This document shows positions 13,890-28,275 of a stretch of 64,000 bases of DNA, piece by piece (the stretch's first letter is position 1; each line of letters opens with the position of its first letter). Made by a program: the position numbers and the translations under genes. The DNA is from Candidatus Eiseniibacteriota bacterium (lineage in GTDB: Bacteria > Eisenbacteria > RBG-16-71-46 > JABDJR01), in contig CAVXKA010000003.1 of assembly GCA_963762255.1 (NCBI GenBank), positions 128,001-192,000 of the forward strand, read 5' to 3'. The notes beneath the pieces were generated by a model. The model made no database searches and was not told where the DNA came from. It worked only from the letters and a program-made list of their open reading frames with translations.

Positions 13890-15152
13890 CTAGTCGAGGG
13901 GCGCGCCGAGGACCTGCCGCCCACCCCGGAACACCGCCCGAACATGCGACACGCCAAAGTGATACGGAAGCTGGCGAGCGGCCGGGAGATCCAGCACTTG
14001 CAGGTCGGCCCGGTACCCTGGACGCAGCCGCCCGACGCGGTCGCCCAGCGCGAGCGCCGCGGCCCCGTTGGCGCTACAGGCGACCAGCGCTTCCTCCGGG
14101 GTCAGGCGCAGTTGCACACAGGCCAGAGTCGCCATCATCGGCATGGACTGCGACATGCACGATCCGGGGTTGAAGTCGGAGGCGACCGCGACCGGGAGCC
14201 CGACGTCGATCATGCCTCGCGCCGGCGCCTTGTCGCGCATGTTGAGGAAGAAGGACGTTCCGGGCAGGAGCACGCCGATGGTCCCCGCATGAGCCATGGC
14301 GCGTGCAACGTCCGGAGGCGTGCCATGGAGATGGTCTGCGGAGACGGCGTGCAGCTCGGCCGCGAGCCGCGAGCCGCCGGTGTCGCCGAACTCGTCGGCG
14401 TGGAGTTTGAGTTGGAGGCCGTGGGCACGCGCGGCGTTCAAGATCGTGCGGCTTTCCTCCGGGGTGAAGACTCCCTCTTCACAGAAGACGTCGCAGAAGA
14501 CGGCAAGCCCCTCGCGCGCGACGGCGGGGATCATGGTCTCGCAGACGAGCTTCACGTACCCTGCGCGGTCGTGCTGCCATTCCATGGGGATTTCGTGCGC
14601 ACCGAGAAAGGTGGGGATGATATCGATGGCTTCGGTGTCGCGAAGCGTGCGGATGAGGCGGAGCGCTCGAAGTTCGTCGTCGGTGGAGAGCCCGTAGCCG
14701 CTCTTGATCTCGATCGTCGTGGTGCCGTGTTGGAGCGCGAGCGCCAGGTTGTGCCGTGCGCGCAGAAGGATGGCTCCATCCGAAGTCTCGCGGAAGTGGC
14801 GTACGCTGGCGTGGATGCCGCCGCCCGCTGCGGCGATCTCCTGATAGGTCCTGCCTTGTATGCGCAGCGCGAACTCGTCCTCGCGGGTGCCGGCGAAGAG
14901 GAGATGCGTGTGGGCATCCACCCAGCCGGGGAGCACGGTGCGGCCGCGCGCATCGAGGATCTGTTTCGCTCTGTTGCCGTGTGCGCCCTCAACCTCTTCG
15001 CGAGGACCGGCCGCAATGACCTGGCCGTTCTCGATGGCCAGCGCGGCATTCTTGACGGAGCCGGTGTCGCCCTGTGTCGCGCCCGCCTGCGGGCCGGGCT
15101 TGTCGCTCATGCGGCAGAGCTCGCCGATGTTGGTGAGGAGGAGATCTGTCAT
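13890..15152 (-). CDS. hutI: Imidazolonepropionase
   Basis: PGWVDAHTH, GGGIHASV, EIKSGYGL, DVFCE, KLHADE, SADHL and SDFNPGS motifs. Confidence 0.96.
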   Translation of the reverse strand: MTDLLLTNIGELCRMSDKPGPQAGATQGDTGSVKNAALAIENGQVIAAGPREEVEGAHGNRAKQILDARGRTVLPGWVDAHTHLLFAGTREDEFALRIQGRTYQEIAAAGGGIHASVRHFRETSDGAILLRARHNLALALQHGTTTIEIKSGYGLSTDDELRALRLIRTLRDTEAIDIIPTFLGAHEIPMEWQHDRAGYVKLVCETMIPAVAREGLAVFCDVFCEEGVFTPEESRTILNAARAHGLQLKLHADEFGDTGGSRLAAELHAVSADHLHGTPPDVARAMAHAGTIGVLLPGTSFFLNMRDKAPARGMIDVGLPVAVASDFNPGSCMSQSMPMMATLACVQLRLTPEEALVACSANGAAALALGDRVGRLRPGYRADLQVLDLPAARQLPYHFGVSHVRAVFRGGRQVLGAPLD

Positions 15153-15510
15153 GTCAGTGGTCCTCGCTGTTCCGTGTCACTCGTGCGGGCGCGGCGTAGC
15201 CGGATCGCCCCGCGAACGACGAAGCGTCTCTGAGCCGCGGCGGGAGCGACGCGGCGCCGTCGTACTGTTTCTGGGCGGCTCGACAACTAGGCGGTAGGTC
15301 GGTGTCGTTTACCCGGGGAAAGTGCGCAGCGAAGCGGGGACCCGCCGCGGCGAAGGAGCGAGCGAAGAACGCTCCTGCGGAGCGTTCGCGCGAGCGCGCC
15401 CGAGGAGTGCGCGGGGCGAGACGACGAGAGCCGCGCCCGCGAGCGCCACGATCCGCGAGCGCATAGAAGTACAGGCAGGCAAACCAGTGCGTGTTAACCG
15501 CAAACAGCAG

Positions 15511-15532
15511 CGAGTCCAGCCGGCTGGACTCG
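15511..15532. repeat. 22-bp perfect palindrome CGAGTCCAGCCGGCTGGACTCG
   Basis: The sequence is self-complementary and ends 11 bp before palindrome copy 1. Confidence 0.85.
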
Positions 15533-15543
15533 AATGGCGACTG

Positions 15544-15563
15544 ATGCTCACCCGGGTGAGCAT
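15544..15563. repeat. Palindromic repeat copy 1 (ATGCTCACCCGGGTGAGCAT)
   Basis: Perfect 20-bp palindrome, 9 bp beyond the stop codon of the 15573-18140 gene. Confidence 0.93.
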
Positions 15564-15572
15564 GGCTGCGCA

Positions 15573-18140
15573 TCACCGCGGCAACACCACGATCTTGCGC
15601 GACGCATGTCCGGCCTCGGTATCCAGCCGCAGGAAGTACACACCCGCCGGCACCCGTCTCCCGCGCTCGTCCATCAGATCCCAGGTCATCGTGTGGGCCC
15701 CGCCGACCTGCGGTTCCGCATACAGGAGCGCAATGTGACGCCCCTGCACGTCGGCTACGCGCAGCACCGCAAGACCCGGCTCCGGAGCGAACCAGTCTAT
15801 GGCCACCGGTCCGGCCGCGGGCATGGGAGCGACGCCGAGCGAAGGGCCCCCGGCCTTCGCGGCAGGGTAGGCGTGCCCGTCCCACCGCGCGATGAACGCG
15901 GATGGGTGATTCCCCGCGTAGTCGAAGGTCCCACCCAGGTACAGGGAGCCCTGCCATTCCGCGATAGCCGTGACTCCAACCCAGCGCATCGACACCGTCC
16001 GTACGTCTCCGCCCAATCCCAACCATCGCGTTCCGTCCCACAGAGCGACATGGCGGACCGAGTCTGGAGCGTCCGGCCAGAGCAACTCGCCCCCCACCAC
16101 CAGCCTCCCATCGTAGATGCCCAGCTTGTAGACATCGGAACGGTCCGTCAGCCCCAGGGATTGCCAGTTCAGCGCATCCCATGCGACCAGAGCGCCTGCC
16201 GTTTCTCCCCCCGCTGTTTCGAAGTGAGGGCCCGCCGCGTATAGCCTTCCGTTCAGCACGGCGATATCGTTCACCCGGATGCGGCTCCAATTCACGGTCA
16301 AGCCCTGATCGATGGACAACCAGTCCCAACCGTCCCAGATGGCGAGGCTGTTGACCCCTCGATACCCGGCAAAGGTGAAATAGCCGGAGACGATCAGAGC
16401 CGGCCCGACCGCCTTCATGGCAGTGGCCGACGAGTAGCTGCCGAGAAGACCCCGGCCGAGCGGAGTCCATGTCACCCCGTCCCAGGCGGCGATGCCGTAG
16501 GCCGAAATGCCCCCGGCGGACCGGAACGATCCTCCGGCTATGAGTTGCCCCTGGTACTCCACCAGCGCGTACACAGCTCCGTCCATGCCGCCGCCGAACG
16601 GCTCCCAGCTACTTCCGTCCCATGCGGCGATGTGATTCGCCTCAATCCCCCCGATGTGCTGGAAGGAACCACCGACGATCCAGGTGCCGTTGAAGGGCAT
16701 GAGGACTTGTATCGGACCGTCCATGTCGTCCTCGAGAAGGGTCCACACCGTTCCATCCCAGCGCGCCAGCCCGGTGATCCGGGTCCATTGCCCGGCGGGT
16801 CGGAAGGTGCCGGCGACAAGCAGGCCCGAGTCCGTGGGGAATATCCCGCTGGGCGAGTACACCAGTTCCGGCCCGCGCTCTCCCAGCGGGGCCCAGTCCG
16901 TTCCGCTCCACTTCAGCACTCGACCGGGCTGGGATTCGACCGGACTCAACGTGGGTCCCGGCAACGAGAAGCTGCCGCCGATCACCAACTCGCCGCGGTA
17001 GAGGGCAACCGCTTCGATCTTCCGGTTGAAGGCGGTGCAGGTCTGCTCGTTGCCGGGGCAGTTCCACCGCGCACCGTCCCATATAGCAGCACCCGGGGCG
17101 AAGGTCTCCATCTCCGGCACGAACGAAGCGCCAGCCACAGCGAGCCTCCCATCGAAGGGGACGAGATGACCCACCCAGTAGTCGGGAACCAGGCGCTCGT
17201 CCGCAGACCCCAACGCGCTCCAGGTCTCCCCGCTCCACGTAGCAACGTTCCTGACCGCGGCACCCCCCGCCTGCGCGAAGTTACCCGCGGCCACCAAGTG
17301 CCCCTGGTATGCCGCGAGATCGCGCACCTCGCCGTCGGTGCCGCCGGCCGGCGCCGACCAGTGCTCGTCGTCCCAACGCGCGATGTTGCCGAGCGTATCG
17401 TCGGGCGCTAGACGAAACCGCCCACCCATCCAGAGGTCCCCGTCGCGCCATTCAAGAGCGCGAATGGACGGAGAGAACTCGTAGAGCGTGTCGGGGGTGA
17501 GATCGCTCCAGCCGGTCCCGTCCCAGAGCAGCACGAACGGCGTATCCGGATCCGCCCCGTAGAACGGGAAGGGGTCGAATCGCTGGCCGCAGACGAAAAG
17601 GCTGTCCCCCACCGAGACGATGTCGTTCACCGTGGCGTTCCCCGACAGCAGATCGGCGCCCAACGGTTCCCACTCCGCGCCGGTCCATTGGTGGAGTGCG
17701 CTGGGCAGCCTCGGGTCCAGCAGGCGCGGGTTGGATTCGGGCCTTCCGCGCGCGGCGAGCAGGCGACCCTGATGCGCTGACATCAGTGTCGGAAACCCGG
17801 AGACAGGCAATCCCTGCGGCCAGGCCTCGTACCCCGCTCCGTCCCAGACGGCCAGCCCGGGTGCGGCCACGCCGTTGATGAAACCGAACGCCCCCGCCAC
17901 AAGAAGCTTCCCGTCGAATTCGAGCAGGGAAGAGATCGTCGGGCCGGATCCGCTGCCGGAGGTGGGCAACGCGGCAGGAGGGTAGAACCCGTCCCACCAG
18001 AGTTCACCGCCGCCGAGCGTGGTGTCGGGCGACCCGGGGAGCGCAGCCGCGTTGGACGGCAGCAAGAGCGCAGCGAGAAGCGCCGCGACGCCGGCCGCAA
18101 TGCTCACCCGGGTGAGCATTCGCCGCGCCTCGGTCCGCAT
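15573..18140 (-). CDS. Secreted beta-propeller repeat protein with a FlgD-Ig/T9SS-like C-terminal domain
   Basis: Signal peptide, then many repeats of the form IARWDG..W..LG.G...V.AL...G.L.AGG.F, and a C-terminus VADVQGR...WDLMDERGRRVPAGVYFLRL...RKIVVLPR. Confidence 0.82.
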   Translation of the reverse strand: MRTEARRMLTRVSIAAGVAALLAALLLPSNAAALPGSPDTTLGGGELWWDGFYPPAALPTSGSGSGPTISSLLEFDGKLLVAGAFGFINGVAAPGLAVWDGAGYEAWPQGLPVSGFPTLMSAHQGRLLAARGRPESNPRLLDPRLPSALHQWTGAEWEPLGADLLSGNATVNDIVSVGDSLFVCGQRFDPFPFYGADPDTPFVLLWDGTGWSDLTPDTLYEFSPSIRALEWRDGDLWMGGRFRLAPDDTLGNIARWDDEHWSAPAGGTDGEVRDLAAYQGHLVAAGNFAQAGGAAVRNVATWSGETWSALGSADERLVPDYWVGHLVPFDGRLAVAGASFVPEMETFAPGAAIWDGARWNCPGNEQTCTAFNRKIEAVALYRGELVIGGSFSLPGPTLSPVESQPGRVLKWSGTDWAPLGERGPELVYSPSGIFPTDSGLLVAGTFRPAGQWTRITGLARWDGTVWTLLEDDMDGPIQVLMPFNGTWIVGGSFQHIGGIEANHIAAWDGSSWEPFGGGMDGAVYALVEYQGQLIAGGSFRSAGGISAYGIAAWDGVTWTPLGRGLLGSYSSATAMKAVGPALIVSGYFTFAGYRGVNSLAIWDGWDWLSIDQGLTVNWSRIRVNDIAVLNGRLYAAGPHFETAGGETAGALVAWDALNWQSLGLTDRSDVYKLGIYDGRLVVGGELLWPDAPDSVRHVALWDGTRWLGLGGDVRTVSMRWVGVTAIAEWQGSLYLGGTFDYAGNHPSAFIARWDGHAYPAAKAGGPSLGVAPMPAAGPVAIDWFAPEPGLAVLRVADVQGRHIALLYAEPQVGGAHTMTWDLMDERGRRVPAGVYFLRLDTEAGHASRKIVVLPR
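18099..18120. repeat. Palindromic repeat copy 2 (AATGCTCACCCGGGTGAGCATT)
   Basis: Perfect 22-bp palindrome with a 20-bp core identical to copy 1. It encodes MLTRVSI at the start of the signal peptide. Confidence 0.93.
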
Positions 18141-18144
18141 GCTC

Positions 18145-19812
18145 CTACCCCTCCACCATCGGCATCCGTATCCCCTTCGCCTTCGCGACCGCGATCGCCT
18201 CGTCGTACCCCGCGTCGGCGTGGCGCACCACACCGGTGCCGGGATCGTTGGTGAGCACACGCTCGAGCCGTTGCGCGGCGTCCTCGGTGCCGTCCGCCAC
18301 GATGACCATCCCCGCATGCAGCGACAATCCGATCCCCACACCGCCGCCGTGATGGAAGGAAACCCAGGTCGCACCGGACGCGGTATTGAGCAACGCGTTC
18401 AGGATCGGCCAGTCCGCGACCGCGTCCGAACCGTCCTTCATCGCTTCCGTCTCGCGATAGGGACTCGCCACCGAACCGGTATCCAGATGATCGCGCCCGA
18501 TCGCGATCGGCGCTTTCACGCGCCCGCTCTTGACGAGATCGTTGAAGAGGAGCCCCGCCTTGGCGCGGTCGCCGTAGCCGAGCCAGCAGATCCGCGCGGG
18601 CAACCCCTGAAAGTGCACGTGCTTCGTCGCGAGCGGCAACCATCGCGCGAGCACCTTGTCCTTCGGAAACGCGGCCAGGAGCGCCTCGTCGGTGGCGCGG
18701 ATGTCCTCGGGATCGCCCGACAACGCCACCCAGCGGAACGGGCCTTTGCCCTCGCAGAAGAGCGGCCGGATGAACGCCGGCACGAAGCCAGGATAGTCGA
18801 ACGCGTTCGCCACACCCGCCTTCTCGGCCTGCCCGCGCAGGTTGTTGCCGTAGTCGAAGACGGTGGCGCCGCGCTTCTGGAACTCGAGCATCGCCCGGCA
18901 GTGCACCGCCATCGACTCCATCGAGCGCTTGACGTAGGTCTTGGGATCGCTCGCGCGCAGCCGCAGCGCCTGCTCGTACGACATGCCGTGCGGCACGTAG
19001 CCGTTCAATTCATCGTGCGCCGAGGTCTGGTCGGTCACGTAGTCGGCCGCGAACCCGCGCAGGACGAGTTCCGGCAGGATGATCGCCGCGTTCCCGTGTA
19101 CCGCCACCGAGTAGGGCCGCTTCTCCTTGCGCGCGGCTTCGACGCGCGCGATCGCCTCGTTGAGCGTCTCCACCGCCTCCATGCAGTAGCCGGTGGCGAT
19201 GCGCCGATCGATGCGATCGCGATCCACCTCCACCGCAAGACATACGCCGCCGTTCATGGTGACGGAGAGCGGCTGCGCGCCGCCCATGCCCCCGAGACCC
19301 GCCGTCACCAGCACCTGCCCCGCCATGTCGCCACCCGCGCGCTGCCGCGCCGCCTCGGCGAAGGTCTCGAAGGTCCCCTGCACGATTCCCTGCGTGCCGA
19401 TATAGATCCACGACCCCGCGGTCATCTGCCCGTACATCATGAGGCCCTTCGCCTCGAGGTCGCGGAAGTGCTCCCACGTCGCCCACTTCCCCACCAGGTT
19501 CGAGTTGGCGATGAGCACGCGCGGCGCGCCGGCGTGCGTGCGGAAGACGGCGACCGGCTTGCCGCTCTGCACGAGCAGGGTCTCGTCGGCGGCCAGCGTC
19601 TTGAGGGTACGGACGATCGCGTCGAAGGCCGCCCAGCTTCGCGCGGCGCGACCGGTACCGCCGTAGACAACCAGATCGTCAGGACGCTCGGCCACGTCCG
19701 GATCGAGGTTGTTCATGAGCATGCGCATGGCCGCTTCCTGCGGCCAGCCCTTGCAGGTGATGGCGGCGCCGCGCGGGGCGCGGACGGTGCGAGCGGTGGC
19801 GGTCGAGGTCAT
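18145..19812 (-). CDS. hutU: Urocanate hydratase
   Basis: [44 protein letters not shown] and HHGGGVG motifs. Confidence 0.98.
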
Positions 19813-21941
19813 GTCGGGTCTCCTTGTCGCGAAAGCTTGCGGGCGCGCCGGGGCTTGGCGGGCGCTGTCGCCGGCACCGCGGCCGGCGCCCGCAACTCCT
19901 CCGGCGCATGCGCCCCGCTATTCCACCACGAAGCGGCCGCCCGCGCCAGCGCCGCGCCGTCCTCCACCGAGGTCACCGGCAGCGGAAGCGCGTCGCGGAA
20001 GCGGCCGCCGTAGTTCTTGCTCAAGAGCCTCGTGTCGAGCACGGCGACGATGCCGCGGTCGGCGCGACGACGGATCAACCGCCCGAAGCCCTGCTTGAAG
20101 CGCAGCACCGCTTCGGGAAGGTAGAGGTCCGTGAACGGGTTGCCCCCTTCTGCCTCCAGCCGCTCCGCGCGCGCCTGATAGCGCGGTTCGGTGGGCACGC
20201 CGAACGGAAGGCGGGTCAGCACCAGCACCTCGAGATCGTCGCCGGGAAGGTCCACCCCTTCCCAGAAGCTTGCGGTGCCGAGCAAGAGCGCGCGCTCGGC
20301 GCGGCGGAACGCCGTGAGCACGTCGCTCGCGGTGCCGTGCTCGCCCTGCGCGAAGACCTCGTAGGCGGATCCGCCCACCAGCGCGCGCACCGCGTCGAGA
20401 TCGCGATACGACGTGAAGAGCGCCATCGTCTTGCGCGCCGGATCGTGCATGAGAGCGTCCAGCGTCTGTGCGGTGGCCTCGGCCCACCCCGGCTCGCGCG
20501 GATCGGGGCCTCGCCGCACTGCCAACGCCAGCGCCTGAGTCGTGAAATCGAAGGGCGAAGGATACGCGATGGCGGGAAGGGCGCCCTCGAAGCCGACCTC
20601 GCGCGAGAAGTAGTTGAAGTCCTTCCCGGCGGCGAGCGTGGCCGAAGTGAAGACGAGCCGCTCCGGCCCGTTCGCGAGCGCCGCCGCCACGCGCGGTCCT
20701 GCCTCGAGCGGCGACGCGTTCAGCGAGAACCCGTCCTCCGACCACTCCTTCCAGTGGACGCGCTCGCGATCCTGCGGATCGGGATGGAGGAGCACGTCCA
20801 TGTCCTTGCGCAGCGCGTCCACCTCCCCCTGGAAGCGGTCGATCTCGGCGAGGAACGCTCCCTCGCTTTCGCTCTCCACACCGTTGCCGTCCAGGTACGA
20901 AGCGAGCGCGCCGGCGTCCGCGGAAAGCGTGCCCAACGCGTGGAACACCGGCTCCGCATCGAGCGGGCAGAGCGCGGCCAACTCCTCGGGATCGCTATAG
21001 CGGCGGCGGTCGTCCCCGTTGCCGCGCGCGCCGTTCTTCTTGCCGAACCACTCGCGGGCGATGCGCTCGGCGGTCGAGAGCGAGCGGTGCACCGCCACGA
21101 GCCGCGACGCCCCCTCGCCGGAGCGCGCAACCTCGGGAAGGCCCCCACCGCCGCCGGGCGACGCGTCCACCAGCGACTGCAACCGCGACGGCCCCGCCGC
21201 GACCGTCAGGTGATCGATCGCCACCCGCACGAACGCGTGCGCCTCGTCCACGATCAACGCGGGGAACTCCGGGAGCACGTCTCCTTCGCCGAAGAGGTGC
21301 GTCGCGAGAAGCGCGTGGTTCACCACGAGGAGATCCGCAGTACCCGCGCGCGCGCGAGCCTGCTTGAAGAAGCAACCCGACTGCGGCGAGCACGCGGAGC
21401 CGCGACAGAAGCGCGGTTCGCTGGCCGCGTGGAGGGCCAGGAACTTGAGATCCCGCGCGCCGCGCTCGCCGCAGGTGCCGAAGTCGCCGGTCTCGGTGCG
21501 CTCCACCCAGGGGCGGATGCGCTCCAGGAGGCGCTGCGTGCCCTCGGTGGTCGCGTCGCGGACGGCCGCTTCGTAGCGGCGTCGGCAGAGATAGTTCGCG
21601 CGCCCCTTCAGGAGAAAGACGCGCAGGTCCGGACCGACCGCGAGCCTGAGCCGCGGCGCCTCCAGGTCGAGGAGTTGGTTCTGCAGCGCCTTGGTGTGGG
21701 TGGAGACCACGACCGGGCCGTGTCCTTCCGCCGCCCAGAGTGCCGCGGGGAGTCCATAGGCGAGCGACTTACCGATGCCGGTGGGCGCCTCCACCGCAAG
21801 TCGTCCGCCGTCCTCGAAGAGGCGCGCGATCTCAAGCGCGAGCTCCCGCTGGAACGGGCGGTCCTCATACGGGGCAAGCGCCGCGGCGAGGACGCCGTCG
21901 GGACCGAGGAGATCCGGCACCTGCTCCGCGTTGTAGCTCAT
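19809..21941 (-). CDS. dinG: DinG/YoaA-family ATP-dependent DNA helicase
   Basis: [17 protein letters not shown], Fe-S cysteines, VVNHALL, VDEAH, TSATL, FWEGVD and QGFGRLIR motifs. Confidence 0.92.
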
Positions 21942-21974
21942 CGTTCCGCCCGTCCCGCGCACAACCGCGTCATC

Positions 21975-24134
<2,160 letters not shown>

Positions 24135-24141
24135 TCAATCC

Positions 24142-25191
24142 ATGAGCCGTCATCACCTCGCCCCGTCCGCTCCCCGGTCCCTTGCGGCGGCCGTGCTCCT
24201 GATCGCCCTCATGGTCGCCGGTTCGGCCTCGGCGGCGGTGGCGGCCTCCCTGAGCGGCGGCTACCGCCCCGACTCCACCTGCACCGGCGATCGCGCGCTC
24301 CATCCCAGCGAGCCCTCGGCCAAGCAGGCGATCGCCTCCTCCGACGTCATCTTTGTGGGCAATCCGTTCGCCGTGCACGATCCGGTGCCGCTCTCGGTTC
24401 AGCTCCCCGAAGACGAGATGGTGATCGACATCGGTTTCCAGGTGCTGCGCGCCTGGAAGGGCGGGGTAGCGGACACGGTCTGGGTACGCACGATGCGTAA
24501 CCCGCAATCGGGCGGATGGGCCATCGGAACCGAGTTCACCTACCTCGTGTACGCGCGCCGTTACGGGGACGTGATCTGGACCGACGCGTGCAGCCGATCG
24601 CGGCTCGCGCGTAATTCCGAGACCGACCTCTACTACCTCGGCAAGCCGACCTTCGACGACGGCTCGGGCGGAGTGCCGGAAGTCACGATCGAGACGCTCC
24701 TCCAGACGGTGCGGGACAACACAGGAACCCGACGCCTCCTGGCCATGCAAGCCGTGTCGCACATCACGGAGGAAGCCGCGCGTGTCCTTCCCGTGCTGAC
24801 GGAGGTCTACCGCACCGGGCGCGGCTCCGAGCGCTCGGAGGCGCTCAACGCGATCGGCAACATGGGCGCGCAGGGTCGCGGCGGGGTGCCGCTCTTGCTG
24901 GAAGCCTCGGCGGATACCACCGCGTACATCCGTCAGGCTGCAGCCGGCGCGCTGGGGCAGATCGGCGATGACTCCCCCGAGGTCGTGGACGCGCTGGTGC
25001 GGCTGACCGCGGATCCCGAGACCGTAGTGCGGGGAATGGCGGCGCGCGCGCTGGGGCGGATCGGCGTCGGCGGCGAGAAGGTGATCGCCGCGCTCAAGCC
25101 GCTCCTCGATGACCGCGCCCGTTTCTGCCGCGAGTCGGCACAGGCCGCACTTGACTCGATCGCCGAGAAGGCGCAGAAGCAGTCGCGCTAG
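24142..25191 (+). CDS. Secreted protein with a TIMP/NTR-like domain and HEAT repeats
   Basis: Signal peptide; SDVIFVG...FQVLRAWKG...YLVYA...CSRS resembles bacterial TIMP-like domains; C-terminal repeats of the form R..AA.ALG.IG. Confidence 0.7.
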   Translation: MSRHHLAPSAPRSLAAAVLLIALMVAGSASAAVAASLSGGYRPDSTCTGDRALHPSEPSAKQAIASSDVIFVGNPFAVHDPVPLSVQLPEDEMVIDIGFQVLRAWKGGVADTVWVRTMRNPQSGGWAIGTEFTYLVYARRYGDVIWTDACSRSRLARNSETDLYYLGKPTFDDGSGGVPEVTIETLLQTVRDNTGTRRLLAMQAVSHITEEAARVLPVLTEVYRTGRGSERSEALNAIGNMGAQGRGGVPLLLEASADTTAYIRQAAAGALGQIGDDSPEVVDALVRLTADPETVVRGMAARALGRIGVGGEKVIAALKPLLDDRARFCRESAQAALDSIAEKAQKQSR

Positions 25192-25289
25192 TCGCGCGGC
25201 GGGTTGCGCCGCTTCGCGTCTCGCCCGTCGCCCTCGCCGACGGGTCCCCCGCTTCGCGGCCCGTCGGACTGCGGTCGACGGGCGTGCCT

Positions 25290-26588
25290 CTACGCGGCGC
25301 GATGATCACCCGGGTGGGCATCAATCCCGGAACCGCGCCGCAGCGGCCATCCCTCGCTGCCGCCGGCCCGCGCGTGAATCATCCCGTGGCACGAGCTGCA
25401 CAGCGTGATCAGGTTGTCAGGATGATTGGCGCCACCGTTCGTGCGCGGCACGACGTGATGCACGTCCAGGAAACGCGCGCTGCCGCATCCCGCGGTGCGA
25501 CAGCGGTGACCGTCTCGCGCCAGAACCTCACGCCTCACGGACGGCGGGATCGTTGCGTGGTTCTTCTCCCCCTTCCGATCCACGCGCGCGTCGCAGAGCG
25601 CGGTTTCGAGCGTCTTCGGCGAGACGGGCAATGGGCCGCGCCCGGTGGCGATCTCCGCGCGGCCACACGTCTCACACTGGCGGATCACGATCTGATAGCG
25701 CGGCTCCGATCGGGCTTCACGTCCACGGGTTTCGCGGACAGTTGCGGGTTGGTCTTCACCGCCAGATCCGGTTTCGACAGCGGACTTGCTCATCCGGGTG
25801 AGCATTTCCCATGCAGCGAGGAACAACTCTTCTCGCGCTCCGTGCGCCCCGGTCTTGCGTGCCTTCTCGAGGATCGCTTCGTACCGCGCGTACTGCTCGG
25901 GTGAAAGCGTGAACGACACCGTGACCGGGACTTCGACCGCCGGGTTCACGACCGCGCCCACAGCTCCGTCCGCCGCGTCATAGGTCCCGGCCGCCAACCC
26001 ATTCGCCGGGCCATCCACGCCATTGGCCACCAGCAGCTCCCCCTGCCCCGGCGCGCGCCGCCGGACCCTCGCCGCGCCCTGCGTCACCGCTATCCGCCGC
26101 TCCAACTCCCGCCGGCCCGTGCTCTGCGCCTGTTCGACCCAGAACCGTTCCGTCTCCGGCGTGGCCACCTTCACGACCTCCCGGGCCTTCGTCCACGGGA
26201 CCGCTCCCGACGCGACCGACTCCTTCAACGCCGGCAGCGCATCGAATGCCCGGCACAGTCGCAGGAAGTACGCGGTGCGCGCCCGCGAGAACCCGAGCCG
26301 CTCATGGGCATAGTGATAGATGCTCGAGCAGCCCAGCTCCAGGTAGAGCTTCCGGCTCAGGATCTCCCCGAACCAGATCACCGCGTTCTTGCGCGCGGCG
26401 TCCAGATCGCTCAGCGCGGCAACCAGACGCGCTTCGACCTCGGCTGCGGGGAGCGGTCGGCCAGACGCAGATTCCGCGGAGTCGGCGAGGGGCGAAAGGT
26501 TCTGGACCCCGGTGCTCACCTCAGCGAGCAGGGTCTCAACAGCCGGAGCAGCGGCGTCAGCATGCAGTGCGACAGTGTCAGCGGACAT
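25290..26588 (-). CDS. HNH endonuclease with a long N-terminal (DUF222-like) region
   Basis: C-terminal CRTAGC...LDVHHVVPRTNGGANHPDNLITLCSSCHGMIH, preceded by CETC and LCDA. The N-terminal region is helical (VPWTKAREV). Confidence 0.88.
   Translation of the reverse strand: MSADTVALHADAAAPAVETLLAEVSTGVQNLSPLADSAESASGRPLPAAEVEARLVAALSDLDAARKNAVIWFGEILSRKLYLELGCSSIYHYAHERLGFSRARTAYFLRLCRAFDALPALKESVASGAVPWTKAREVVKVATPETERFWVEQAQSTGRRELERRIAVTQGAARVRRRAPGQGELLVANGVDGPANGLAAGTYDAADGAVGAVVNPAVEVPVTVSFTLSPEQYARYEAILEKARKTGAHGAREELFLAAWEMLTRMSKSAVETGSGGEDQPATVRETRGREARSEPRYQIVIRQCETCGRAEIATGRGPLPVSPKTLETALCDARVDRKGEKNHATIPPSVRREVLARDGHRCRTAGCGSARFLDVHHVVPRTNGGANHPDNLITLCSSCHGMIHARAGGSEGWPLRRGSGIDAHPGDHRAA
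25302..25321. repeat. Palindromic repeat copy 3 (ATGATCACCCGGGTGGGCAT)
   Basis: 18/20 match to the consensus; lies in the last codons of the HNH gene. Confidence 0.85.
25786..25805. repeat. Palindromic repeat copy 4 (TTGCTCATCCGGGTGAGCAT)
   Basis: 18/20 match; inside the HNH gene, in the linker before the HNH domain (encodes MLTRMSK). Confidence 0.85.
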
Positions 26589-26641
26589 GACGGTCCCTCC
26601 GTGGACGGGTGGAAGGACGGGGGAAGTGGGCGGGCAAGGAC

Positions 26642-26670
26642 AATCTATCGCGACGGTAGAGATACGTCAA
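26642..26670 (-). promoter_or_regulatory. Sigma70-type promoter of the HNH gene
   Basis: Minus strand TTGACG-17 nt-TAGATT with an AT-rich tract upstream. An inverted repeat CGTCA-N9-TGACG (26665-26683) overlaps the -35 box. Confidence 0.7.
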
Positions 26671-26705
26671 TAATAAAATGACGACATCGACAACAAAATC
26701 TCACT

Positions 26706-26725
26706 ATGCTCACCCGGGTGATCAA
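26706..26725. repeat. Palindromic repeat copy 5 (ATGCTCACCCGGGTGATCAA)
   Basis: 18/20 match; intergenic, upstream of the HNH promoter. Confidence 0.87.
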
Positions 26726-26757
26726 CAGTCGCTGAAGCGCCTGCGCCGATCGCGCAA

Positions 26758-28275
26758 CTAGAACGCCGCGTCGAGTCGCAGATGGATGCGTCCGTCGAGC
26801 GGGCTCTCTCCCTTGGCCACGCCGTACTCGATCCCGAGCAGGCCGAGCTTGCTCGCTTGCCGCACTCCCACGCCGGTCCCCAGAAGGAACGTGCGGAAGC
26901 TATCGCGCAGTTCCTGTCCGTGGCGAGGTGAGATGAGGGCGGCGTCGGCGAAGAGGTAGAGCGCGGACCCTCGGGCATCTGCGAGCCAACGCCATTCCGC
27001 CTGAACGAGCCAGGCCGCCGGCGTCAGGAACTGCTCCTCGCGGTAGCCGCGCAACGAGGACGCCCCGCCCACCGCGAAGAGGTCGTAGCGCGCGAGCGAA
27101 TCCTCCGGAGTGTCGAGGTACTCGAACGATCCGCGCAGGGCGAGAAGCCACTGCCGTCCCGCGCGGCGATACGCCTCGGCGCCCGCCGTCCAGCGCGTGC
27201 GGTCGATGCGCACCTCGAGCGAGTCCCGCGCCGCCGCGAAGCTCTTCTGGCCCCGCCGGCTCTCCAGGAAAACGCGCCCGCCCGCCGTGGGCACCAGCTG
27301 GGAATTCCGCCGGTCCCACTCCACGCCGAGGATATAGAAACCCTCGGTGACGGTGCCGACATCGGAGGCGGTTTCGACGGCCTGAGTTCCTCCCCGACCC
27401 ACCCGGAATCGCCACCCGCCCGACCGATCCAGGTTGGCCGCAACTTCCCATTTCGTATACGAATAGACGCCCTGGTTCACGTCATGGGTGAGGCTGCCCT
27501 GCACGCCGATCGGGATCAGCGGCAACCACGGCTCGTGATAGCTCAAGGCGAACCGGCTCAAGCCGTCGCCACGGTCCTCCCAACGCCCGGTGGCGCGGCG
27601 CGCGGTGCCGGCGATGTTGGCCAGATCGAGATCGACAAGTCCGGTGACCCGCGAGTCGCGGCCGCTCACTCCCAGCACACCGGCGAAGCGCGTGAAGGGC
27701 GGTTCGGTCACCGGCACTTCGAGAAGCACGTCGTCGGGCGTGCCGCCCGGGTTCAGCCTCACCTCTCCGACCGAGAGGAAGAGACCGGAGCGGGCGAGAG
27801 CTTCCGCGAGCGCGCGATCCTGTCGGCCGGTGTAGGGCTCGCCGATCCGCACGCCGGCGACGCGCAGCGCGGTGGCGGGGCGCGTCACCTTGCCGCCGGT
27901 GAGAAGCAGACCTGCCACGCGCGCCTTGGGACCTACATCCAGCGTGACGGTTCCCTCCAGCCGGCCATCGCGCAGGTCGAAGGAACCCGGCGAGGCCTCT
28001 GCGAAGGGGTACCCGATGTCGGAGAGCCACGCGAGCGCGCGGCGGAGCGCGGGGCCGATCGGCGCGTCGCTCACAGGCCGTCCTTCGAGATCGAGCGATC
28101 GCGCCCATGCGATGCTGTCGATGGGAGCGGTCGTGACCAGGCGAAGTCTCCCCCACCGCAGCGGCTCGTCCGCTTTCGCAGCGTCGGCGCCGGCGAACGC
28201 GCCCGCCGGCACGGACGCGAGCAGCATCGCGACGGCTAACCCCCGCCGCACCGCGCACGAAGCGCCCGCGCGCAT
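26758..28275 (-). CDS. Omp85 (BamA/TamA-like) outer membrane protein
   Basis: POTRA-like motifs (GYPFAE, LARSGLF), barrel motif GGASSLRGYREEQF and a C-terminal Phe. Translationally coupled to the upstream gene by TGATG. Confidence 0.85.
   Translation of the reverse strand: MRAGASCAVRRGLAVAMLLASVPAGAFAGADAAKADEPLRWGRLRLVTTAPIDSIAWARSLDLEGRPVSDAPIGPALRRALAWLSDIGYPFAEASPGSFDLRDGRLEGTVTLDVGPKARVAGLLLTGGKVTRPATALRVAGVRIGEPYTGRQDRALAEALARSGLFLSVGEVRLNPGGTPDDVLLEVPVTEPPFTRFAGVLGVSGRDSRVTGLVDLDLANIAGTARRATGRWEDRGDGLSRFALSYHEPWLPLIPIGVQGSLTHDVNQGVYSYTKWEVAANLDRSGGWRFRVGRGGTQAVETASDVGTVTEGFYILGVEWDRRNSQLVPTAGGRVFLESRRGQKSFAAARDSLEVRIDRTRWTAGAEAYRRAGRQWLLALRGSFEYLDTPEDSLARYDLFAVGGASSLRGYREEQFLTPAAWLVQAEWRWLADARGSALYLFADAALISPRHGQELRDSFRTFLLGTGVGVRQASKLGLLGIEYGVAKGESPLDGRIHLRLDAAF

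Follow-up and report, generated by a model that had tools for sequence, protein, structure and literature searches.

A dispersed palindrome family linked to a multi-copy HNH nuclease gene: a candidate REP/RAYT-like system in an Eisenbacteria lineage

We found that a 20-bp palindrome, P (consensus RTGMTCACCCGGGTGAKCAY), forms a genome-wide repeat family concentrated at the paralogous copies of an HNH nuclease gene, and that homologous HNH genes in other genomes are often accompanied by palindromes of their own. We consider, with moderate confidence, that the HNH protein encoded at 25290–26588 of the window (the whole 64-kb stretch of DNA that was analysed) has P as its cognate, dyad-symmetric DNA site and that the two together make up a selfish system resembling REP/RAYT, with an unrelated enzyme. 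The core idea of the original prediction, a palindrome family tied in a REP/RAYT-like manner to a multi-copy HNH gene, is upheld, with P enriched at the paralogues and the same design recurring with other palindromes. The pairing of nuclease and palindrome may help to clarify the workings of a poorly understood selfish gene family.

Scanning of the window recovered the five predicted copies, ATGCTCACCCGGGTGAGCAT being found with no mismatch at 15544 and 18100 and with two mismatches each at 25302, 25786 and 26706, and no further match at three mismatches or fewer; in 100 dinucleotide-preserving shuffles of the window the mean was 0.00 matches and none had five. The copies are:

15544–15563, no strand: P, perfect, 9 nt past the stop of the inserted secreted-protein gene, at the outer end of the 392-bp composite repeat
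18100–18119, no strand: P, perfect, within the inserted gene (5' coding region); 25 nt separate it from the stop of hutU
25302–25321, no strand: P, 18/20, in HNH codons for the disordered C-terminal tail
25786–25805, no strand: P, 18/20, at HNH residues 262–268 (MLTRMSK)
26706–26725, no strand: P, 18/20, 118 nt upstream of the HNH ATG

Two copies had been taken to bracket the gene inserted between hutU and hutI; that at 15544 does lie outside it, but that at 18100 falls in frame within its 5' coding region, where it encodes MLTRVS of the signal-peptide n-region. As for the three copies said to bracket or sit inside the HNH gene, all imperfect in this copy, those at 25302 and 25786 lie inside the ORF, the latter where the ribbon-helix-helix-like segment gives way to the disordered linker preceding the zinc ribbon, and that at 26706 is upstream of the ATG.

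Over the whole genome, 82 sites match a degenerate P consensus at three mismatches or fewer, compared with one for the reversed control, and the core TCACCCGGGTGA occurs 70 times as against 0–8 for comparator 12-mers. Symmetry runs unbroken through the centre of the palindromes (CCCGGG, CCGCGG, CACGTG or GCCGGC across the family), a signature of duplex recognition by a dimer, and the position table has no conserved flanking tetranucleotide. Sites are mostly at gene ends: among the 68 at two mismatches or fewer, placed with a crude gene caller, 38 are intergenic (16 between convergent, one between divergent and 21 between co-directional gene pairs) and 30 lie inside called ORFs, 22 of these no more than 100 nt from the ORF end. 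Since convergent sites outnumber divergent ones 16 to 1, most copies are not at promoters, and in its placement P behaves like a REP and not like an operator. The expected enrichment near HNH homologues was also seen, nine of the 68 sites being in or near the paralogues (12.5 kb) against 0.21 expected, a Poisson figure that overstates independence because the paralogues are 70–90% identical in DNA and the matching position of P in five copies partly reflects shared descent. The other 59 sites are outside HNH loci, and most solo copies have flanks without homology to the interior of the HNH unit. A search for the Y1 HUH transposase of RAYTs (PF01797) gave no match in this genome, which is 93.6% complete; the same search matched six of 14 control genomes.

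The HNH gene forms part of a unit that occupies the gap between a HEAT-repeat gene (ending at 25191) and an Omp85-family gene (ending at 26758), with the following features:

25207–26683, reverse strand: whole HNH unit, about 1.5 kb, as delimited by homology between paralogous loci
25290–26588, reverse strand: HNH nuclease gene, 432 aa
25207–25301, reverse strand: 3' module M, 95 nt, a long imperfect hairpin with two inverted CCCGTCG..CGACGGG stems
26642–26670, reverse strand: promoter-like site TTGACG-17-TAGATT, conserved in paralogues

The unit contains a single ORF and no methylase. Module M, which is conserved after the stop in four paralogues and folds at −42.1 kcal/mol (z −4.5), is itself a dispersed repeat with 24 matches in the genome, and an inverted copy of it is found upstream only in paralogue C3b. 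The gene occurs in seven copies, two of them broken and one of the intact ones lying on contig C2 at 935542–936849, and P is present in five of the seven; copy C1a and the window copy lack a perfect palindrome of 14 nt or longer. Comparison of the paralogues revealed neither terminal inverted repeats, the homology edges not being inverted repeats, nor a target-site duplication at the unit ends.

The predicted protein has a helical ParB/Noc-like part (residues 45–178), a ribbon-helix-helix-like segment (222–266), a zinc ribbon (302–338) and the HNH domain (349–408), these being separated by disordered linkers and preceded by a predicted disordered stretch (1–37). In the AlphaFold2 model the helical domain has pLDDT >90 and the overall pTM is 0.39, and the three coding-region P positions map to segments with pLDDT <50 or to their margins. 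Foldseek gave Noc/ParB DNA-binding domains as the best fold matches of the N-terminal part (6y93_A, probability 0.99, target-normalised TM 0.69), with weak E-values of 0.036 or more for the whole model and 0.09 or more for the Noc/ParB matches. No Pfam family for the ParB/Srx CTP-binding domain was matched in the window copy or its relatives. The label DUF222-HNH given to the protein holds for the HNH part, since the window copy matches Pfam HNH (PF01844, E 2.7e-10), but for DUF222 (PF02720) only by way of homologues: the window copy has no match at E ≤ 0.1, and the family is found in two of 13 relatives (best 2.4e-8) and in ten of the 120 homologues among the matches listed. The same relatives score for HNH in all 13 cases and for HTH_ParB in four (best 1.8e-5), and in their alignment H377, H378, N392, H401, H405, C363 and C368 are invariant, the His/Asn/His and Cys pairs being invariant or nearly so. 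Homodimer prediction for residues 40–270 scored 0.74 (best control 0.01); 20 of 30 solved homo-pairs and one of 23 single chains attain a score of 0.74. Overall, the protein resembles a nuclease coupled to a site-specific DNA-binding part.

We then surveyed 76 HNH loci of homologues in 26 genomes, taking each gene ±300 bp. Perfect palindromes of 14 nt or longer were present at 53 of the loci, and the 23 loci without one include all six scanned in G013, most of those in G006 and two of the present genome (C1a and the window copy). The same 12-nt core recurs at two or more places in 22 of the 76 loci (shuffles: mean 0.03, maximum 1 in 100), and palindrome density is 0.774 per kb as opposed to 0.198 per kb in the outer flanks. 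Their positions are stereotyped, namely upstream (70–270 nt before the ORF start, near promoters), in the inter-domain linker and at the 3' end. Moreover, the arms differ by gene subfamily even inside one genome, G004 having GTTTCCCCGGGGAAAC, AGATACCCGGGTATCT, TAGGGACCCGGGTCCCTA and TGGACCCGGGTCCA, and the same palindrome tracks the same gene subfamily across genomes. Cognate palindromes can be amplified as well: G004 has 15 copies of one, only four of them in HNH loci, and copy numbers reach 111, 210, 256 and 84 in G041–G044 (controls 1–2) and 25, 19, 6, 23 and 99 in G045–G049 (controls 0). The HNH gene is likewise multi-copy elsewhere, with many matches in G003, G004, G006, G007, G013, G021 and G028.

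Both window loci differ from their counterparts in relatives. The features at the hut locus are:

15573–18140, reverse strand: inserted gene between hutU and hutI, whose secreted product has DUF5122 and, at the C-terminus, a domain of FlgD_ig type; its start codon is likely 18138–18140, the alternative being P's own ATG at 18117–18119
15173–15564, no strand: composite non-coding repeat block, 392 bp, made up of a 240-bp repeat (15200–15441), GTTTACCCGGGGAAAG (15307–15322), hp2 and P
15512–15531, no strand: hp2, second palindrome (GAGTCCAGCCGGCTGGACTC), 12 nt from P

A genome of the same genus, G001, has neither the HNH unit nor the hut insert at the same sites, the gap between the HEAT and Omp85 gene ends being 67 bp there and 1,570 bp here, and that between hutI and hutU 51 bp as against 2,969 bp. 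Empty-site alleles with one and with no palindrome are both represented: the G001 hut gap has one related palindrome (GATTCCACCCGGGTGGAATC) at the spot matching 18100, and its empty HNH site has no P. Further, a tandem gene pair of this genome corresponds to a single gene in G001, the indel of 3,393 bp being close to the P-to-P distance of 3,403 bp. G001 carries P and the 3' module M; no HNH match was found in its assembly, which is 75% complete and in 360 contigs. Rearrangements ending at P were also found in metagenome contigs, and record 14 of contig X2 joins 26707 to 25786, a P-to-P junction with the 25786 copy as breakpoint. P is enriched at insertion boundaries, as foreseen, both in the same-genus comparison and in related contigs. 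Short palindromes can cause deletions via host replication slippage, with no need for a dedicated enzyme.

The composite block is an insertion relative to contig X4 (about 92% identical), whose record 24 joins 15172 to 15565 and is missing 15173–15564. The proposal that the hut insert is cargo is supported only in part: the 2,969-bp insert is real by comparison with G001, but X4 has the inserted hut gene without the 392-bp block that bears P at 15544, so the gene and both of its bracketing P copies were not acquired in one step. Two other places in the genome, both beside P, match the segment 15200–15441 at about 85% identity, and ten of the 19 hp2-like sites in the genome lie 27–53 nt from P, eight of these at 31–32 nt.

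We infer from these data how the system might work. The HNH unit of roughly 1.5 kb would be the autonomous part, with its own promoter and one ORF, carrying P in the 5' region, the inter-domain linker and the C-terminal tail, and ending in the 95-nt hairpin module. Its protein probably binds duplex P as a symmetric dimer, by way of the ParB/Noc-like helix-turn-helix domain and/or the ribbon-helix-helix-like segment, and the HNH domain would then nick or cut near the bound P. Solo copies of P and composite P-hp2-module blocks may be footprints or non-autonomous derivatives, still open to recognition by the protein. A break at P would be mended either through recombination of one P site with another or with other copies as the source, and such breaks and repair could produce the spread of P, concerted evolution within units and indels ending at P.

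That P is only the protein's operator for self-regulation, its genome copies being relics of degraded HNH units or sites recruited by chance and not moved by the protein, seems unlikely to us. Upstream palindromes do lie near promoters, ribbon-helix-helix-like and helix-turn-helix parts are typical of repressors, and the solo 3' modules resemble unit relics; however, the near absence of P between divergent genes speaks against operators, the 59 of 68 sites outside HNH loci and the up to 256 copies elsewhere are far above what relics of a few HNH copies would leave, most solo flanks show no homology to the unit interior, and indels end at P. Less probable again is that P is an older host repeat, REP-like or a recombination hot spot, that HNH units target and did not spread, much as some insertion sequences target REPs. 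This fits the P at 26706, which falls 8 nt beyond the point where paralogue homology stops on the left and is not part of the shared unit, the other four close copies (C3b, C2a, C2b and C2c) having none at that spot; it also fits the related palindrome at the G001 empty hut site and the occurrence of P in G001 with no HNH match in its 75% complete assembly. Yet the unit itself has P at constant positions, in three coding segments that are disordered, and P is absent from the G001 empty HNH site; a host feature would hardly be expected to have arms that vary with gene subfamily, even inside a single genome. A restriction-type or defence nuclease directed against a foreign palindrome, with host copies protected by, for example, CCCGGG methylation, is very improbable: homologues are named 'McrA' in sources, McrA and TagI are the top fold matches of the HNH part and P has a CCCGGG core, but host genomes normally avoid restriction sites and P is enriched 70-fold in this one, the site lies inside the gene itself, and the gene is multi-copy with broken copies in a single-ORF unit without a methylase.

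The favoured reading, a cognate nuclease and palindrome, has counterparts among known systems, and we found no description of such an HNH/palindrome pairing in the literature. With REP/RAYT (Y1 HUH, IS200/IS605-like; 'REPtrons', REPINs) it shares a short, lineage-specific palindrome in tens to hundreds of copies, mostly extragenic and at 3' ends, found also in composite blocks and clustered at a nuclease gene that co-varies with the repeat. It differs in the enzyme, which is an HNH protein with a ParB-like DNA-binding domain and not HUH/Y1, in the multi-copy gene and in the presence of the repeat inside its own coding sequence. REPs, moreover, form imperfect hairpins, have a conserved head tetranucleotide and act as single-stranded DNA, in contrast to P with its perfect centre and no conserved flanking tetranucleotide. 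Free-standing HNH homing endonucleases are likewise single-gene selfish units with a site-specific HNH nuclease (predicted here) whose presence varies among close relatives. In homing, however, insertion of the gene destroys or occupies the site, whereas here intact P is kept in several copies in or beside the HNH gene and amplified genome-wide.

ParB/Noc proteins have a similar helix-turn-helix fold (predicted here) and recognise 16-bp palindromes of similar make-up; going by the published parS (TGTTTCAC-GTGAAACA) and NBS (TATTTCCC-GGGAAATA) sequences (PMC7383237), several HNH palindromes resemble parS or NBS, some sharing arms or centre. Unlike ParB/Noc, the present protein has no CTP-binding domain among its Pfam matches and has its predicted DNA-binding domain fused to a nuclease, and P sites are scattered, not clustered near the replication origin. 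The DUF222-HNH genes of mycobacteria and other Actinomycetota ('REP13E12 / 13E12 repeat') are also multi-copy, about 1.3–1.5 kb long, and encode an N-terminal helical domain plus a zinc-binding HNH, and homologues at about 40% identity carry PF02720; the differences are that the window copy does not reach DUF222 in Pfam and that the host belongs to an Eisenbacteria lineage. REP13E12 loci are reported to be hot spots of gene conversion, 'lacking defined biological function' (PMC13061034), and the portions of the literature examined make no mention of a cognate palindrome family for them.

A bolder reading, which we regard as rather doubtful, is that the ParB-like/HNH protein and P constitute an undescribed site-specific rearrangement system, in which any DNA between two P copies is a cassette, integron-like without an integrase, and that the same logic extends to DUF222-HNH/REP13E12. 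If so, P-flanked cassettes could be excised, lost, duplicated or re-inserted at another P, shuffling accessory genes (here those for secreted, T9SS-tailed proteins) and even both halves of the nuclease gene, and the enigmatic DUF222-HNH/REP13E12 repeats of Actinomycetota would find an explanation in the same terms.

The 20-bp palindrome P, ATGCTCACCCGGGTGAGCAT, occurs perfectly at 15544 and 18100 and with two mismatches each at 25302, 25786 and 26706 of the window (62–73% G+C). The original prediction held that the 64 kb contain these five copies and no other, and this was confirmed: no further match was found in the window at up to three mismatches, and shuffled sequences gave 0.00 matches. 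The features around the five copies are as follows.

13890-15152, − strand, hutI
Between hutI and the inserted ORF, a non-coding stretch
15512-15531, the second palindrome family hp2, GAGTCCAGCCGGCTGGACTC, adjoining P with 12-nt spacing
Between hutI and hutU, − strand, an inserted 933-aa ORF (DUF5122 and an FlgD_ig-type C-terminal domain)
18145-19812, − strand, hutU
19809-21962, − strand, DinG-like helicase gene
21975-24050, − strand, ligA (NAD-dependent DNA ligase)
25207-25301, 95-nt module after the HNH stop, predicted to fold into a single long imperfect hairpin (−42.1 kcal/mol, z −4.5)
25290-26588, − strand, HNH nuclease gene, between a HEAT-repeat gene (+ strand, ends 25191) and an Omp85-family gene (− strand, ends 26758)

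The window spans C3:128001-192000 in a 4.14-Mb genome of three contigs (C1–C3). Across that genome, 60 places match the exact 20-mer with at most three mismatches, against none for its reversed control, and its core TCACCCGGGTGA is present 70 times, against 0–8 for comparator 12-mers. With the consensus of the aligned copies, RTGMTCACCCGGGTGAKCAY, we identified 82 sites at up to three mismatches (39, 22, 7 and 14 at 0, 1, 2 and 3), compared to one for the reversed control. When the 68 best sites were assigned a gene context with a crude GC3-based gene caller, 38 were intergenic (16 convergent, 1 divergent, 21 co-directional) and 30 lay in called ORFs, 22 of these within 100 nt of the ORF end; among the remaining eight, internal to ORFs, are two in HNH linkers and a pair in one VWA gene. 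P is also clustered, with 25 neighbour pairs at most 8 kb apart, whereas 1000 random placements averaged 8.3 such pairs and never exceeded 17. The distribution of P is thus that of a REP-like repeat and not of a promoter operator. Many solo copies adjoin housekeeping genes, and the P-bracketed genes annotated besides the hut insert (the gene between hutU and hutI, for a secreted protein) likewise encode secreted accessory proteins. P was rejected as an intrinsic terminator, with no T-run following it and only three weak sites, none at P, in a terminator scan of 25100-26800. Because an Rfam search of the whole window (E ≤ 1) gave just one, chance-level, miRNA match, the repeats correspond to no known RNA family. 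Other palindrome families in the genome are small (two copies of the C2d-type palindrome TGTGTACCCGGGTACACA and 11 of hp2), so only P is strongly amplified.

P starts with ATG or GTG on either strand and contains TGA, and several ORFs, taken at their greatest length, begin exactly at P or terminate within it (C1:779991, C3:595591 and window 18100); P may therefore donate start and stop codons to its neighbours. A stretch of 5 kb at C1:1209413-1214232 with almost no called genes contains four P or P-like sites.

The HNH family occupies seven loci in this genome by tblastn, one split over two frames and another with three stops, so that five appear intact; a search of the genome for Y1/RAYT genes was negative. 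Homology among paralogues spans from ~118 nt upstream of the ATG to ~95 nt past the stop, and by these limits the HNH unit measures ~1.5 kb (25207-26683). Comparison of the paralogues revealed no terminal inverted repeats at its edges and a conserved promoter-like TTGACG-17-TAGATT in its upstream part. P is present at five of the seven loci, and the enrichment near HNH homologues that the original prediction called for was found, as nine of the 68 sites fall within the 12.5 kb of these loci (±300 bp) versus 0.21 expected, a comparison that overstates independence because the HNH copies share descent. On the protein alignment, P maps to residues ~19–26, ~262–268 and the C-terminal tail.

In Pfam, HNH was matched by all 13 relatives, HTH_ParB by four and DUF222 by two, while the window copy matched HNH only, plus a weak DUF1016_N; in NCBIfam, only the HNH part of IscB was matched, far under the cut-off. 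Homologues are named ‘HNH endonuclease’, ‘McrA’ or ‘hypothetical’ in their sources, with 10 of the 120 listed bearing PF02720; Krumholzibacteriia proteins are among them. The AlphaFold2 model (mean pLDDT 68, pTM 0.39) comprises a confident helical domain (45–178), a zinc ribbon (302–338) and the HNH domain (349–408), and residues 222–266 are modelled as a strand and two helices that, read from secondary structure, may be ribbon-helix-helix-like. The HNH histidines and asparagine and the cysteine pairs are fully or almost fully conserved. Segments 1–37, 179–220, 266–296 and 410–432 have pLDDT below 50; P at ~19–26 and at 424–430 falls within such segments, and P at 262–268 straddles the start of the third. 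Foldseek gave no match to the whole model at E ≤ 0.001; the N-terminal part best matched the DNA-binding domains of Noc and ParB (6y93_A, probability 0.99, target-normalised TM 0.69), and the C-terminal part the HNH domains of McrA, TagI and Gme. A homodimer of residues 40–270 was predicted with a score of 0.74, versus 0.01 for the best control, with contact agreement between runs of at least 39% and partner pLDDT of at least 66. Of 30 solved homo-pairs, 20 attained the mark used, as did one of 23 single chains; these counts hold only roughly here because our own alignment was used.

The HNH protein family was matched in 26 of 41 same-class genomes, often repeatedly. The association of palindrome and HNH gene expected across relatives did recur, with other palindromes; P itself (18-mer, up to one mismatch) is abundant only in this genome (65 copies) and the same-genus genome G001 (6), against 0–3 in the other 39. 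Palindromes of other HNH subfamilies are of the types GTTTCCCCGGGGAAAC, GTCCACCCGGGTGGAC and CTTGCGCCGGCGCAAG. In the related genome G004, GTTTCCCCGGGGAAAC is found upstream of the two closest homologues and within their linker, and the other HNH subfamilies of that genome have AGATACCCGGGTATCT, TAGGGACCCGGGTCCCTA or TGGACCCGGGTCCA. In further metagenome genomes, one palindrome (for example GTCCACCCGGGTGGAC, GTCCCCCCGGGGGGAC, GACTTGCGCCGGCGCAAGTC, GCGTGCGCCGGCGCACGC or CGTGCCACGTGGCACG) recurs at three places, namely upstream, ~255–390 nt before the match end and at the 3′ end; TGGATCACGTGATCCA is confined to the 3′ end of its HNH locus. Scanning 76 loci of 26 genomes (gene ±300 bp) for perfect palindromes of at least 14 nt, we found one or more at 53 loci and none at 23, including all six scanned in G013. 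An identical 12-nt core was present at two or more places at 22 of the 76 loci (triplet shuffles, mean 0.03 and maximum 1 in 100), and palindrome density was 0.774 per kb at the loci versus 0.198 per kb in outer flanks. The palindromes of a genome's own HNH genes are dispersed as well, with 15 copies in G004, four of them in HNH loci (control 0), 111 in G041, 210 in G042, 256 in G043 and 84 in G044 (controls 1–2), and 25 in G045, 19 in G046, 6 in G047, 23 in G048 and 99 in G049 (controls 0). The arms vary with perfect dyad symmetry retained, the same sequence stands at several places within a unit, and palindrome type tracks the gene subfamily, not the host genome. Together these sequence patterns argue that the palindrome would be a functional site read by the encoded HNH protein.

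At the hut locus, P at 15544 starts 9 nt past the stop of the inserted gene, whereas P at 18100 lies in frame within its 5′ end, the protein beginning MRTEARRMLTRVSIAAGVAALLAALLL with a signal peptide; of the two copies proposed to bracket this gene, the first therefore does so and the second is inside it. A gap of 4 nt separates the hutU stop from the start of the inserted gene (TAG GAGC ATG; 18138-18147) and a Shine-Dalgarno-like GGAGGGG lies in the end of hutU, so the inserted gene is probably co-translated with the genes of the hut operon. Immediately 5′ of hutU, in the same orientation, are the DinG-like helicase gene and ligA (19809-24050), odd surroundings for a histidine-utilisation gene.

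Empty-site alleles with one or no palindrome, as the original prediction envisaged, exist in G001. There, the hutI–hutU gap is 51 bp, compared to 2,969 bp in the window. In this spacer a single perfect 20-bp palindrome, GATTCCACCCGGGTGGAATC, shares the 10-nt core of P and lies 9 nt from the stop codon of hutU, in the position of window P at 18100 (25 nt from the hutU stop). The HEAT and Omp85 genes of G001 end within 67 bp of each other, without an intervening P, compared to 1,570 bp in the window. In a third case, G001 has one gene in place of a tandem pair here for T9SS-tailed beta-helix proteins (64% mutual identity), and the size difference of 3,393 bp is close to the P-to-P distance of 3,403 bp. 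All three cases are compatible with gain in this genome as well as with loss in G001. For two other P-bracketed genes, G001 offered matches only to paralogues, or the flanks were missing. Both tandem genes (C2:1040467-1047300) end with a TGA inside P, followed by the same P–GTTTACCCGGGGAAA–P block, and these non-coding blocks are more similar than the genes themselves.

Contigs of related organisms in metagenome runs, as opposed to reads of this strain, provided two further junctions. In run X2 (record 14), the Omp85 gene is followed by one P and directly by 25786 onward, removing 920 bp that comprise the promoter and N-terminal half of the HNH gene; the stretches flanking the junction measure 507 nt, with 24 differing letters, and 344 nt, with 45. 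In run X4 (record 24), 15172 is joined to 15565 with eight other letters between and sides of 430 and 377 nt, so that this relative (~92% identical) has the hut insert gene and lacks the 392-bp repeat block ending in P at 15544. Both boundaries of change at the hut site coincide with P. Nonetheless, the X4 contig makes the gene and its 3′-side P block separate events, and the hut insert as cargo, as originally stated, was not borne out. The best share of window words in the public runs was 0.15, and contigs of all four runs came from relatives, making depth uninformative. If the assembler word was 31 letters, as the 31-letter run index suggests, the 20-nt P is shorter than that word and a false assembly join at P alone is unlikely. 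An X3 joint from 18119 to 15185 (40 letters between), considered as an empty hut site, was set aside as ambiguous because its ‘from’ exceeds its ‘to’ and side lengths are absent; it may be another block of P, 12 nt, hp2 and repeat, or a tandem or circular junction. The joints X3 15566 to 25246 and X4 15323 to 26707 were set aside on the same grounds.

P also forms part of composite repeats. The hp2 family, with 11 copies genome-wide (up to two mismatches), keeps a fixed 12-nt spacing to P, and 10 of 19 hp2-like sites lie 27–53 nt from P, eight of them at 31–32 nt. The hp2 sequence closely resembles GAGTCCACCCGGGTGGACTC, the palindrome matched to HNH genes elsewhere; being without a cognate HNH gene here, hp2 may be the orphan of a lost HNH subfamily. 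Window 15200-15441 is ~85% identical to two other genomic places, both adjoining P. The 95-nt module, built from two inverted CCCGTCG..CGACGGG stems, has 24 genomic matches (the window and 23 others), five at HNH 3′ ends and several near solo P. Each close HNH copy ends in this module, and solo modules often lie ~40–100 nt from solo P. At least three copies (C60, C135 and, partial, C356) occur in G001, where no HNH gene was found. At the 3′ end of one HNH paralogue (C2:317844-318140), a ~75-bp direct duplication starting with P has its duplicates 218 bp apart, flanking a copy of the repeat also at window 15200-15317.

P and the HNH gene are thus a real, unusual repeat/nuclease pairing, the mechanism of which we infer, and the main idea of the original prediction, a palindrome family linked to an HNH gene in REP/RAYT-like fashion, survived its own test. 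The pairing resembles REP/RAYT (palindromic repeats with a Y1 HUH nuclease) in genomic behaviour but lacks its defining enzyme. The HNH gene is distantly related to the DUF222-HNH genes, which are widespread and multi-copy and for which we know of no function. Several of the HNH palindromes have arms or centre in common with ParB and Noc sites, the 16-bp palindromes TGTTTCAC-GTGAAACA and TATTTCCC-GGGAAATA (PMC7383237). For mycobacterial REP13E12 loci, a 2026 preprint states that they ‘lack defined biological function’ (PMC13061034), and the literature presents REP13E12/DUF222-HNH in M. tuberculosis as a repeat of unknown function and a gene-conversion hot spot. Among titles and abstract openings, no account was found of an HNH gene family paired with its own dispersed palindrome.

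If true, this would be a second, independent design of nuclease plus dispersed palindrome besides REP/RAYT, in which an HNH nuclease is joined to a ParB-like domain that binds duplex DNA. With a cognate site predicted for every subfamily, DUF222-HNH function becomes testable at the bench, by binding and cutting of defined 16–20-bp duplexes. Moreover, natural protein/site pairs with many long palindromic specificities would suit study of the evolution of DNA-binding specificity in the ParB/Noc fold, and the HNH proteins could supply rare-cutting or nicking enzymes.
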